Shown: positions 8,231-31,037 of the stretch, piece by piece | Numbering within the stretch: the first letter of the stretch is position 1 | Layout of the letters: each line of letters begins with the position of its first letter | Assembly: GCF_022846255.1 (NCBI RefSeq) | Contig: NZ_AP025682.1 | From: Escherichia coli | GTDB lineage: Bacteria > Pseudomonadota > Gammaproteobacteria > Enterobacterales > Enterobacteriaceae | Length of the DNA: 64,000 nt | Reading direction: 5' to 3' (one strand) | Translations under genes and position numbers: made by a program | Notes under the pieces: model-generated | Told to the model about the DNA's origin: nothing | Databases searched by the model: none | The model's input: only the letters and a program-made list of their open reading frames with translations

Positions 8231-8911
8231 CTATTTGACGGTTTTTACTTTTTCACTCAAATAGTTCCCATGGTCATCAATCAGCGTAATTGTATATTGA
8301 TTGATGGCTAAGGCTGTGGTGATAGTCTTATCTGACCAGGGGGCTAATAACAACGTTTCGTGATTTATTTTTCCACTTCCCATCAACTCAGGAATAGTTA
8401 TCCAGTTTGCGGAGTTGTTTTTGATATTAATACCACCATTGGCATGCTTAATGCTCAGACGACGAAAACTTTCTTTATCTACGCCAGTAAGTCCCTCTGG
8501 GCGGTAGATAAATTTAATACGATTCTGCATGGCGAATTTTATGCCATTCTTATCTTCTAATTCGGGGCAATTAGGTGGGATGTCTAGCACATTAAGGAAG
8601 AATAGGCTTTCGCGATCTTTTGGTAGTGTATTCGCCAATTTTTTGATTTTGAGTTGTTGCCCTTCCCCCCCTTTTACGTGAGCGACCGGTGGCGTCAACA
8701 CAAACGGAACATGAATTTTTTCTGGGGGTAGACTGGTATCGCCATCATCAATCCATGACTGAACCAGGGCGCTACGATTACCTTCATTCATTAACTGAAC
8801 GGTAATCTCTTTTTTCTTTTCTGGATAAATAACACGAGTGCCGTAGATATAGACACCACTCCACGCAGGCGTGACTATGCCGGCCAGCAAGAAGGCTATT
8901 AATTTTTTCAT
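8231..8911 (-). CDS. fimbrial periplasmic chaperone (PapD/FimC family)
   Basis: 226-aa ORF with signal peptide MKKLIAFLLAGIVTPAWS; size and operon position. Confidence 0.88.
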   Translation of the reverse strand: MKKLIAFLLAGIVTPAWSGVYIYGTRVIYPEKKKEITVQLMNEGNRSALVQSWIDDGDTSLPPEKIHVPFVLTPPVAHVKGGEGQQLKIKKLANTLPKDRESLFFLNVLDIPPNCPELEDKNGIKFAMQNRIKFIYRPEGLTGVDKESFRRLSIKHANGGINIKNNSANWITIPELMGSGKINHETLLLAPWSDKTITTALAINQYTITLIDDHGNYLSEKVKTVK

Positions 8912-28984: not shown

Positions 28985-29680
28985 ATGTTCAGAAAATTAG
29001 CAGCTGAATGTTTTGGTACTTTCTGGCTTGTTTTTGGTGGCTGTGGTAGTGCCGTACTGGCCGCAGGCTTCCCGGAATTAGGCATTGGTTTTGCCGGCGT
29101 GGCGCTGGCATTCGGTCTGACCGTTCTGACGATGGCCTTTGCTGTTGGTCATATTTCTGGTGGTCATTTTAACCCGGCGGTCACTATTGGTTTATGGGCT
29201 GGCGGACGTTTCCCGGCAAAAGAAGTCGTTGGCTACGTAATTGCCCAGGTTGTCGGCGGTATTGTTGCGGCGGCGCTGCTGTATTTAATTGCCAGTGGTA
29301 AAACGGGTTTTGACGCGGCAGCCAGCGGTTTTGCTTCTAACGGTTATGGCGAGCATTCGCCAGGCGGTTATTCCATGCTTTCCGCGCTGGTAGTTGAACT
29401 GGTATTGAGTGCAGGTTTCCTGCTGGTGATCCACGGCGCAACCGACAAATTCGCTCCTGCTGGTTTTGCGCCGATCGCTATTGGTCTGGCCTTAACCCTG
29501 ATTCACTTAATCAGTATTCCGGTGACTAACACTTCTGTTAACCCGGCGCGCAGCACCGCGGTTGCTATCTTCCAGGGCGGCTGGGCGTTAGAACAACTGT
29601 GGTTCTTCTGGGTGGTGCCAATTGTCGGCGGTATTATCGGTGGTCTGATTTACCGGACCCTGCTGGAAAAACGTAATTAA
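28985..29680 (+). CDS. aqpZ: aquaporin Z
   Basis: ORF trimmed to [24 protein letters not shown]...; two NPA motifs (NPAVT, NPARS). Confidence 0.95.
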
Positions 29681-29998
29681 TTAGCATTGGCATTTTATCT
29701 GCCCTGGTTGTTTTATCTTCGACGTTACAAACCGCACGGGTGTTGGTGGCGTCAAAATCGCTGAAGCGTTCCCCGAAGGCCGGGGCAGCCCACATGGATG
29801 TGGGCTGAGGGCGCGTCTTACAGGGACGTTACCTCGCGCCCGACCCGGTAGCCGAAGGGGATAAGCTGAAGGTACCGCGCAGCGGCGATTTTGTTCGCCA
29901 GAGCCCGGGGGTGCAGGGGGCGGCGGCGACTGGCCGCCCCCTGCGCGCTCCCTGCGCCAGTGGCTTTATATGGCATTGCACATGAAAGGAGCGCAACA

Positions 29999-30037
29999 AT
30001 GCTAAACACTCATATAGAATTAAAAATCCCCCTCTGA
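29999..30037 (+). other. 12-codon mini-ORF (MLNTHIELKIPL) with a strong RBS inside a GC-rich structured intergenic element
   Basis: AAAGGAG 7 nt upstream of ATG; coding status unproven. Confidence 0.15.
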
Positions 30038-30137
30038 TGCATAACATTTCCTTTTAATTGCAACTTTACTCGTCCTTCCGCTTTCAGTAGTGTGTCATCG
30101 CGCATTTCGACTTCATCTTTGCAAGGACTGGGTTTTC

Positions 30138-31037
30138 ATGTTTTCTGGGCTGTTAATCATTCTGGTTCCCCTGATTTTGGGTTACCTCATTCCGCTTCGC
30201 CAAAAAGCTGCATTAAAAGTTATTAATCAGCTATTAAGTTGGATGGTTTACCTCATTCTCTTTTTTATGGGTATCAGTCTGGCGTTTCTCGATAACCTCG
30301 CCAGTAACCTGTTGGCGATTCTGCATTATTCTGCTGTCAGTATTACCGTTATTTTACTGTGTAATATTGCCGCCCTGATGTGGCTGGAGCGCGGTCTGCC
30401 GTGGCGCAACTACCACCAGCAAGAAAAACTCCCATCGCGTATTGCGATGGCGCTGGAGTCGCTAAAACTGTGCGGCGTAGTAGTGATTGGTTTTGCCATT
30501 GGCCTGAGTGGACTGGCTTTCTTACAACACGCGACCGAAGCCAGTGAATACACCTTAATTCTGCTACTTTTCCTCGTCGGTATTCAGTTGCGCAATAATG
30601 GCATGACCTTAAAGCAGATTGTCCTTAATCGCCGGGGAATGATTGTCGCCGTGGTGGTGGTTGCCAGTTCATTAATTGGTGGTTTAATTAACGCCTTTAT
30701 TCTTGATCTTCCCATCAATACCGCGCTGGCAATGGCCTCCGGTTTCGGCTGGTATTCTCTTTCCGGTATTTTATTGACCGAATCTTTTGGTCCTGTAATC
30801 GGGAGCGCGGCGTTTTTTAATGATCTGGCCCGTGAGCTGATTGCTATTATGTTAATCCCTGGGCTGATTCGCCGTAGCCGCTCTACTGCACTGGGCTTAT
30901 GCGGTGCGACGTCGATGGATTTCACCCTGCCCGTTCTTCAACGTACAGGCGGGCTGGATATGGTCCCGGCGGCGATTGTTCACGGTTTTATTCTTAGTCT
31001 GTTAGTGCCGATTCTCATCGCCTTTTTCTCTGCATAA
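30138..31037 (+). CDS. lysO: lysine exporter LysO (YbjE)
   Basis: ORF 30090..31037 trimmed to MFSGLLIILVPLILGYLIPL... (299 aa). Confidence 0.88.
   Translation: MFSGLLIILVPLILGYLIPLRQKAALKVINQLLSWMVYLILFFMGISLAFLDNLASNLLAILHYSAVSITVILLCNIAALMWLERGLPWRNYHQQEKLPSRIAMALESLKLCGVVVIGFAIGLSGLAFLQHATEASEYTLILLLFLVGIQLRNNGMTLKQIVLNRRGMIVAVVVVASSLIGGLINAFILDLPINTALAMASGFGWYSLSGILLTESFGPVIGSAAFFNDLARELIAIMLIPGLIRRSRSTALGLCGATSMDFTLPVLQRTGGLDMVPAAIVHGFILSLLVPILIAFFSA

Follow-up and report, generated by a model that had tools for sequence, protein, structure and literature searches.

What is the GC-rich, hairpin-dense element that occupies the spacer between aqpZ and lysO in this Escherichia coli genome? 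The stretch of DNA analysed here, 64,000 nucleotides of contig NZ_AP025682.1 (the window), carries between these genes a cluster of inverted repeats followed by a Shine-Dalgarno (SD)-like sequence and a 12-codon open reading frame (ORF). A first-pass annotation of the letters offered several options: a structured 3′ untranslated region (UTR) or small RNA (sRNA), a different repeat family, or a leader peptide/attenuator of lysO. The repeat-family option turns out to be correct: the element is very probably RRS-lysO (TRIP1), a replication risk sequence (RRS), here in a natural inverted allele, with the SD-like sequence and mini-ORF as by-products. The element itself is already known (Pham et al., NAR 2023, PMC10287960; NAR 2024, PMC11194060; a 2026 preprint, PMC13308219). 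Four of its features appear not to have been described in the literature searched: (i) natural inverted and double-inverted RRS and their frequency; and, from computation, (ii) a conserved unit of ~275 bp, against the published 222 bp; (iii) strand-specific covariation; and (iv) invariant CsrA-type loops together with a link to the TwoAYGGAY RNA family.

Identity of the aqpZ-lysO element

The name RRS was given to a pair of GC-rich 222-bp repeats, one near lysO and one near dusC, at ~650 kb from dif in each case (Pham, Wood, Dunbar, Cox and Goodman, NAR 2024, PMC11194060); RRS is TRIP1 of Rudd (1999), a triple with one partial copy. When the coordinates of Pham et al. are transferred onto the window through aligned lysO-locus sequences, the 222-bp unit (TGTTGGTGGCG...GCGCCAGTG), whose published position is 168-389 bp upstream of lysO (PMC13308219), falls on 29741-29962, with the + strand as the G-quadruplex (G4) or “sense” strand. 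The published G4-forming motif GGGGGTGCAGGGGGCGGCGG lies at 29907-29926, on the + strand only, and a script check found it identical to that of PMC11194060. The element is assigned to RRS-lysO because the published definition maps to this interval and the G4 motif matches exactly. Over ~275 bp, the repeat is 91.6% identical to K-12 RRS-lysO, which lies on the opposite strand relative to aqpZ and lysO, and it is 93.8% identical to dusC-locus copies; nhmmer scores the RRS match at E = 3.5e-112. The window RRS adjoins lysO, and in the closest genome, FDAARGOS_497 (99.8% identity over the spacer, among complete E. coli genomes), a partner copy lies 1.46 Mb away at yohP-dusC.

The sequence also bears out two broader remarks of the first-pass annotation: the block is GC-rich (69% in 29741-29962, against 50% in both aqpZ and lysO), and it is not a canonical REP, being a separate dispersed repeat with no sequence similarity to that family. 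Of the database searches that the annotation proposed, megablast identified a dispersed repeat in E. coli and Rfam returned no family at threshold on the window.

Orientation alleles in E. coli populations

If this is RRS-lysO, how does it differ from the K-12 copy? In the window the G4 strand is co-directional with aqpZ and lysO; in K-12 it has the opposite orientation. The + strand has a negative GC skew (-0.041 over 64 kb, cumulative -0.65; the raw count agrees) and, by synteny, the corresponding K-12 genes lie on the - strand of the right replichore; on these grounds, the G4 strand of the window would be the leading-strand template. Such alleles are common. In a megablast search of 5426 complete E. 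coli genomes with each whole spacer (≥80% coverage), the lysO locus carries the K-12-type spacer in 4028 genomes (74%) and the reversed, window-type spacer in 895 (~16%); the dusC locus is K-12-type in 3309 and reversed in 1999 (~37%). The two loci combine in different ways: both copies are K-12-type in K-12 and SCPM-O-B-8794; lysO is K-12-type and dusC reversed in Escherichia sp. E1V33 and E. whittamii; and both are reversed in E69 and FDAARGOS_497, the latter being, as read from its sequence, a natural “double-inverted” strain.

How did the reversed alleles arise? A simple DNA inversion was considered and ruled out, since the orientation alleles at both loci align only at their gene-proximal flanks. 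The inversion came about through replacement of the whole spacer cassette. Because only these flanks are held in common and the reversed RRS copies are 89-92% identical, the alleles are old haplotypes rather than recent flips. At dusC, the haplotypes also differ in the last dusC codons (annotated lengths are one codon apart; loci L128 7439 and L004 2330), so the swapped cassette extends into the gene. A further, window-type derivative occurs in UPEC-774U/190308 (L003 1501-1820): an internal deletion of ~137 bp takes out both of the GGA hairpins described below, and another of 11 bp falls in the GC hairpin. The internal-deletion allele is present in ~30 complete genomes, an approximate count since the query picks up full window-type alleles too, in two pieces; thus, RRS-lysO can be lost in nature.

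Expected consequences for replication gaps

At both RRS loci of K-12, the lagging strand has the G4 strand as its template (Pham et al., PMC11194060), and beside each RRS a gap of about 2 kb on the lagging strand becomes loaded with RecA and SSB (PMC10287960, PMC11194060). An RRS moved elsewhere in this orientation creates a new RecA/SSB peak (Pham et al.). In the 2026 preprint, a G4 strand on the lagging template gives a gap at nearly every encounter, and none arises from the leading template (PMC13308219). The published model attributes RRS action to the placement of the G4 strand on the lagging-strand template, holds the sequence and position to be highly conserved, and proposes that the gaps serve as topological relief valves where the Ter macrodomain ends on either side (Pham et al.). 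For the K-12 copies, whose function has been shown by experiment, the chain of events is as follows: the G-rich strand, exposed as the lagging-strand template, folds into a G-quadruplex and hairpins; the folded strand stops the lagging-strand polymerase; and the stopped polymerase leaves a post-replication gap of up to 2 kb, loaded with SSB and RecA. In the window allele, the C-rich strand would face lagging-strand synthesis and the G4 strand would lie on the leading-strand template. Given the published K-12 inversion experiments, gap formation at the window copy should be less efficient than in the K-12 arrangement, or even below detection.

Can a functional RRS be inverted so often? Several points weigh against this explanation. 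An engineered inverted RRS in K-12 gives no RecA/SSB-single-stranded DNA peak and shifts supercoiling as the double deletion does (Pham et al.). One would not expect natural single and double inversions to be widespread if the element did nothing more than form gaps on the G4 strand. The leading/lagging assignment itself is provisional, resting on GC skew and synteny rather than on mapped positions of oriC and dif. In vitro, a C strand on the lagging template still gives gaps in ~66% of encounters (PMC13308219), which makes the degree of functional loss in the inverted allele uncertain. Finally, a G4-only model leaves unexplained the strand-specific covariation and the two invariant ANGGAN loops set out below. 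For the relief-valve hypothesis, the inverted lineages are ready-made natural experiments.

A fold conserved on the G-rich strand

What, besides the G4 motif, has been conserved? The full repeat unit spans ~275 bp (29725-30001, + strand), from an AAAC-side 5′ boundary to GCGCAACAA(G)ATG, as delimited by megablast (query 45-319), the alignments and the flank junction of the alx-sstT copy; it extends 3′ of the published 222 bp to take in a helix formed by 29945-29951 and 29988-29994. The predicted structure exceeds chance: the + strand has a minimum free energy of -149.7 kcal/mol, against -121.1 +/- 4.9 for 200 dinucleotide shuffles (z = -5.8, none as good), and the - strand reaches z = -3.3. 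The conservation and covariation that the first-pass annotation suggested looking for are also present. In an alignment (A3) of 20 RRS copies, which represent five locus types in Escherichia and two in Pseudocitrobacter, RNAalifold predicts 71 pairs, 13 of them with compensatory changes. On this consensus structure, which was predicted from the same 20 copies and is favoured by that alignment over slid versions of itself, 98.7% of cells pair, against 40-48% in slid controls, with 58 compensatory cells against ≤11 and 13 compensatory pairs against ≤3; none of 500 shuffles reaches the observed covariation score. Across paired positions, G.T(U) cells outnumber A.C cells by 95 to 9, so the fold is kept on the G-rich strand specifically.

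The structure is built from a few helices, all given on the + strand. A long-range closing helix pairs CAAAATCGCTG (29753-29763) with CGGCGATTTTG (29883-29893). By eye, the yegH-asmA subfamily has GTAAATCGCCG / CGGCGATTTAC here, with CAAAAUCGCCG/CGGCGAUUUUG changed to GUAAAUCGCCG/CGGCGAUUUAC, which would add two compensatory pairs; these are unscored, as A3 misplaces those columns. Two GGA hairpins lie inside this helix. Downstream is the GC hairpin GCAGGGGGCGGC-(8 nt)-GCCGCCCCCUGC (29913-29944), recorded by the first-pass annotation as GGGGGCGGC-(8 nt)-GCCGCCCCC; that core is present at 29916-29941, and its perfect arms extend to 12 nt (29913-29924 and 29933-29944). In other copies, GGGGGCGGC/GCCGCCCCC becomes GGGGGAGGA/TCCTCCCCC, and the asmA subfamily has GGGTGG/CCACCC. 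Because the G4 motif overlaps the 5′ arm of this covarying hairpin, quadruplex and hairpin are alternative folds; a natural variant, GGGGGAGGAGG, disrupts the G4 and preserves the hairpin.

Last comes the helix beyond the published boundary. Its “anti-SD” arm GCGCUCC (29945-29951) pairs with GGAGCGC (29988-29994), and three pairs are changed on both sides. The second arm belongs to the SD-like AAAGGAGCGC (29985-29994), which lies outside the published 222 bp and inside the conserved unit. In the yegH-asmA subfamily, the arms read CGTTCAC/GTGAACG, which destroys the SD and keeps the helix; since the change from GGAG to GTGA is matched by a compensating change in the partner, it is the helix and not a ribosome-binding site that is conserved. 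It is evident from the compensatory substitutions and the invariant GGA loops that selection acts on features besides the G4.

GGA loops and a possible link to CsrA

Hairpin 1 (29787-29806) has a 7-bp stem closed by a C-G pair and the hexaloop AUGGAU, of the ANGGAN/AYGGAY type, with its GGA at 29796-29798. The first-pass annotation drew it as AGCCCACAT-GG-ATGTGGGCT; these arms are there, and around CACATGGATGTG they extend to 10 nt (29786-29795 and 29798-29807). The hairpin is invariant in the 20 copies, save that the E. albertii yegH-asmA copy has lost one base from its 3′ stem, and nine pairs never vary. Hairpin 2 (29809-29841) is formed by GGGCGCG...CGCGCCC enclosing UUACAGGGACGUUA, with its GGA at 29824-29826. 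The hexaloops, AUGGAU and AGGGA(C/U), closed by C-G and A-U pairs, are invariant in 20/20 copies. The consensus selected in vitro (SELEX) for CsrA binding is RUACARGGAUGU. The hairpin 2 loop agrees with it at 10/12 positions, and the K-12 version (GGGAUGU) at 11/12, as a predicted site; the window element has four GGA motifs, two of them in consensus hairpin loops.

Does any known RNA family look like this? On the G4 strand of the window, the best Rfam match is TwoAYGGAY (RF01731, in clan CL00106 with CsrB/CsrC/Rsm), at 29752-29891 on the + strand with 27.6 bits and E = 0.085; neither this element nor K-12 RRS-dusC (30.9 bits) reaches the gathering score of 43 bits. At permissive thresholds, the microRNA, small nucleolar RNA and HOTAIR matches on the window are noise from GC hairpins. 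TwoAYGGAY is described with an unusually long closing stem and has been proposed to bind CsrA (Gardner and Eldai, 2015, PMC4333381). The long closing helix has a counterpart in the element, the inner part of which covaries; of the loops, AUGGAU fits the family pattern and AGGGAC/AGGGAU has G at the Y position. The two are bridged in Pseudocitrobacter, where a 634-bp unit joins an RRS head-to-head with a diverged, RRS-like paralog (L024 2136-2453; L108 5590-5905), because the paralog both gives an nhmmer match to the 3′ half of the RRS profile (E = 1.9e-6, the 325-nt region being searched alone) and has a core scoring 49.2 bits for TwoAYGGAY, above the gathering score. With two invariant loops that match the CsrA-site consensus, a link to RNA and CsrA is possible, and the element may have an additional RNA role beside its published DNA-level function.

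The RRS papers make no mention of CsrA or sRNAs, and a literature search on the neighbouring gene pairs with CsrA, or on the hairpin sequence, found nothing. In the four alleles scanned, the element borders have no promoter-like or terminator-like site, and no GacA/UvrY box or σ70 promoter at the 5′ border passed the scan; by eye, weak promoter candidates can be seen in K-12 alleles (TTCATT-N17-TTTAAT and TTGACA-N15-ATCAAT). In a gene-level table of CsrA targets from cross-linking and immunoprecipitation (CLIP; Potts et al.), dusC and ybjE are entered as unbound, which is weak evidence given that intergenic peaks are outside the scope of the table.

Copies, distribution and mobility

Where else does the repeat occur? 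A megablast search with the window spacer identifies query positions 45-319 (window 29725-29999) as a dispersed repeat, with a median of ~4 matching places per genome (range 1-9), the whole spacer being matched in 895 genomes only. K-12 has a second full RRS copy between yohP and dusC, and a third, diverged or partial copy lies between yegH and asmA. At putP-efeU, a 60-85-bp fragment of the RRS 5′ part is found on plasmid pEC16-AU-EG1 (NZ_CP194962.1; L134 2501-2585), together with a chromosomal putA-putP-efeUOB segment; it is probably a fourth, partial chromosomal copy, which would account for the median. Extra copies occur at alx-sstT in E. whittamii, at ybaQ-copA in a metagenome-assembled genome (MAG; two head-to-head copies on contig L023 beside copA) and, in Pseudocitrobacter, at mdlB-glnK and next to pntB. 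Where they were recovered, the lysO, dusC and yegH-asmA copies are syntenic in E. coli, E. albertii, E. whittamii and Escherichia sp. E1V33. In its behaviour the element resembles an intergenic repeat of low copy number, with synteny of its three main loci across Escherichia species.

At the alx-sstT (L131 7547-7944) and ybaQ-copA (L130 4561-4875) positions occupied by RRS copies in E. whittamii and the MAG, K-12 has BoxC-like and REP/BIME repeats; these spacers are candidate hot spots at which different repeat families are exchanged. The E. whittamii yegH-asmA copy (L098 ~8610-8690) carries a 75-nt insertion that brings one more GGA hairpin (GGCCCAGGGATGGGCC), as though such modules could be added one at a time.

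A scan of genome contigs for the two-loop pattern returned at least 120 loci, against an estimated chance expectation of ~17. Among the matches listed, blastn and nhmmer homologs are confined to Escherichia, Pseudocitrobacter and one MAG, and many non-enteric Gammaproteobacteria have multiple copies of closed two-hairpin modules (CACAYGGAYGTG ... ACARGGAYGT within a long outer stem). The non-enteric modules have no sequence homology to RRS and none reaches the Rfam gathering score; they have the architecture alone in common with it. In Rehaibacterium terrae (L078-L086), the module sits in a 230-300-bp GC-rich repeat present in at least nine copies, mostly at contig ends, and in Stenotrophomonas its sequence is near-identical in four species-level genomes, among the matches listed; further module loci are L088-L095, L016-L018, L027, L051, L066, L096 and L117. 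In Nitrincola schmidtii (L032 54-126), a match to group II intron domain 5/6 lies ~150 nt upstream of a two-hairpin module, which may be an intron insertion target, or the proximity may be coincidence.

Alternative explanations

If the element is RRS-lysO, what is to be made of the mini-ORF? The features recorded by the first-pass annotation are real: AAAGGAG lies at 29985-29991, 7 nt ahead of the ATG at 29999, and the 12-codon ORF (MLNTHIELKIPL followed by a stop) occupies 29999-30037 on the + strand, with lysO starting at 30138. This strong SD-like sequence, ~100 bp ahead of lysO and hidden in a hairpin of the sort that many attenuators use, is what a leader peptide controlling lysO through translation of this ORF would have; that such a leader operates here is nonetheless extremely improbable. 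Neither ORF length nor sequence is conserved: only the first one to three codons are inside the repeat, and the frame runs for 12 codons here, for nine (MMNQHITTS) at K-12 lysO, for 27 into a terminator at dusC and as M-L-stop in Pseudocitrobacter, the ATG being missing from the alx-sstT and ybaQ-copA copies and the SD from the yegH-asmA subfamily, through the compensatory changes that preserve the helix. No terminator follows the ORF, the same repeat adjoins unrelated genes elsewhere, and at lysO itself the element is inverted relative to the window in most E. coli (4028/5426), so the ORF cannot be a general lysO attenuator. It is not considered a gene. Three further options, a type I toxin-antitoxin system, the 5′UTR of an insertion sequence (IS) and a bridge-RNA-like remnant, were raised by the SD and ATG that lie sequestered at the 3′ end; these were rejected, as the ORF is not conserved and the boundary is identical in all copies. 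Would a selfish or neutral repeat, similar to a miniature inverted-repeat transposable element (MITE) or REP, explain the locus better, with no host function here and hairpins that serve spread or merely persist? Much about the distribution would suit it: the one to nine places per genome, the extra copies at alx-sstT, ybaQ-copA, putP-efeU and the two Pseudocitrobacter loci, both orientations at two loci, head-to-head pairs, REP or BoxC in the same spacers of K-12, and an internal deletion tolerated in ~30 genomes. Yet alignments A2, A3 and A4 reveal neither terminal inverted repeats nor target-site duplications at the boundaries, no transposase was found in association with the repeat, synteny holds at the three main loci in four Escherichia species or lineages where recovered, and the compensatory substitutions show purifying selection on the fold; the explanation is quite unlikely. 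Nor does the element look derived from a MITE or IS: the only inverted repeat that brackets it is 9 bp long, allele-specific and within chance expectation.

That the element also, or mainly, acts as RNA, in the 3′UTR of aqpZ or a read-through 5′UTR of lysO, with its ANGGAN loops binding a CsrA dimer, is doubtful. Such a closed two-hairpin module would titrate CsrA or couple the stability and translation of neighbouring mRNAs to it. Across 20 copies neither loop varies, whereas other helices show covariation; the loops fit ANGGAN and RUACARGGAUGU, and 28 nt separate their GGA motifs. Folding is much better on the + strand than on the - strand, G.U-type pairs far exceed A.C, and the best Rfam match is a proposed CsrA binder that the Pseudocitrobacter paralog recovers above threshold. 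Since the window allele is without the aqpZ terminator, aqpZ transcripts should run into the element, and at the convergent yohP/dusC locus the sense strand falls in a 3′UTR in either orientation. Against this stand the K-12-type lysO allele, in which the sense strand is antisense to both neighbours; the lack of a promoter-like site bordering any allele checked, or of an intrinsic terminator following; the sub-threshold Rfam score; four GGA motifs, where CsrB/CsrC have 9-22; the CLIP table, weak as it is; and the RRS papers, which show DNA-level effects without invoking transcription. A broader proposal is just as tentative: RRS would be the enterobacterial branch of TwoAYGGAY-like closed two-hairpin modules, with the invariant ANGGAN loops as functional protein-binding sites. 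If it were true, one version would make RRS an RNA element as well, a CsrA-binding module in 3′UTRs, which would explain both the strand-specific covariation and the natural tolerance of either replication orientation. In the converse version, orphan TwoAYGGAY motifs and similar repeats in Xanthomonadales and other Gammaproteobacteria would be DNA-level replication-gap elements. Either way, the link gives both fields a concrete, testable hypothesis.

Comparison with known systems

How does RRS-lysO of the window, the identification preferred here, compare with better-known elements? It resembles K-12 RRS-lysO and RRS-dusC in repeat sequence (91.6-93.8%), aqpZ-lysO location, exact G4 motif, hairpin-rich predicted fold and pairing with a second copy at yohP-dusC. 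It differs in that its orientation is reversed, with the G4 strand on the leading-strand template by the assignment above and not on the lagging strand as in the native K-12 arrangement; the flanking spacer sequence is different and without the aqpZ terminator, the dusC partner in the closest genome is reversed too, and the conserved unit, with its 3′ helix, is longer than the published one.

With TwoAYGGAY (RF01731; Weinberg et al., 2010) the element has in common a long closing helix around two adjacent GGA-loop hairpins (AUGGAU and AGGGAC), but it scores 27.6 bits against a threshold of 43, its second loop is AGGGAY rather than AYGGAY, and the module sits in a longer unit with the G4/GC hairpin and the 3′ helix. 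RRS activity has been demonstrated on DNA replication, whereas the function of TwoAYGGAY is a proposal only. As in the CsrB/CsrC/Rsm sRNAs, GGA motifs lie in hairpin loops that match the high-affinity CsrA consensus, at a spacing predicted to suit bridging by one dimer; unlike these sRNAs, the element has just four GGA motifs and, with no UvrY/GacA-type promoter or intrinsic terminator found, is not an independent transcription unit by its sequence.

REP/BIME and BoxC elements are likewise dispersed, intergenic and palindromic, and occur in either orientation in the same kinds of spacers. RRS has no sequence similarity to them, is much longer and rarer (2-9 copies versus hundreds), and has a complex, multi-helix covarying fold and no known cognate transposase. 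The only other programmed gap-forming sequence, according to Pham et al., is the Neisseria gonorrhoeae pilE G4. There, too, a G-quadruplex on one strand triggers formation of a replication gap, but the sequence and the purpose, antigenic variation, are unrelated, and pilE G4 needs a dedicated sRNA transcript.

The surrounding locus

The gene order in the window is ybjD-aqpZ-lysO-hcp on the + strand; aqpZ (aquaporin Z) occupies 28985-29680 and lysO (ybjE), encoding the L-lysine exporter, 30138-31037, leaving a spacer of 457 bp (29681-30137). Directly after the aqpZ stop comes an allele-specific left flank (29681-29724, + strand) without the K-12 aqpZ terminator, which consists of a hairpin (GGCCTGGCG...CAGGCC) and then a run of T. 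A perfect 9-bp inverted repeat, TTAGCATTG (29681-29689) and CAATGCTAA (29997-30005), brackets the window-type allele, one arm standing immediately after the aqpZ stop and the other at the 3′ boundary of the repeat; chance alone would give ~0.4 such pairs in a stretch of 457 bp. The lysO-proximal 100 bp (30038-30137, + strand) are common to K-12 and lie outside the variable cassette (98.8% identity over 164 aligned bp, 60 bp of which are inside lysO); the lysO promoter and 5′UTR are presumably located there.

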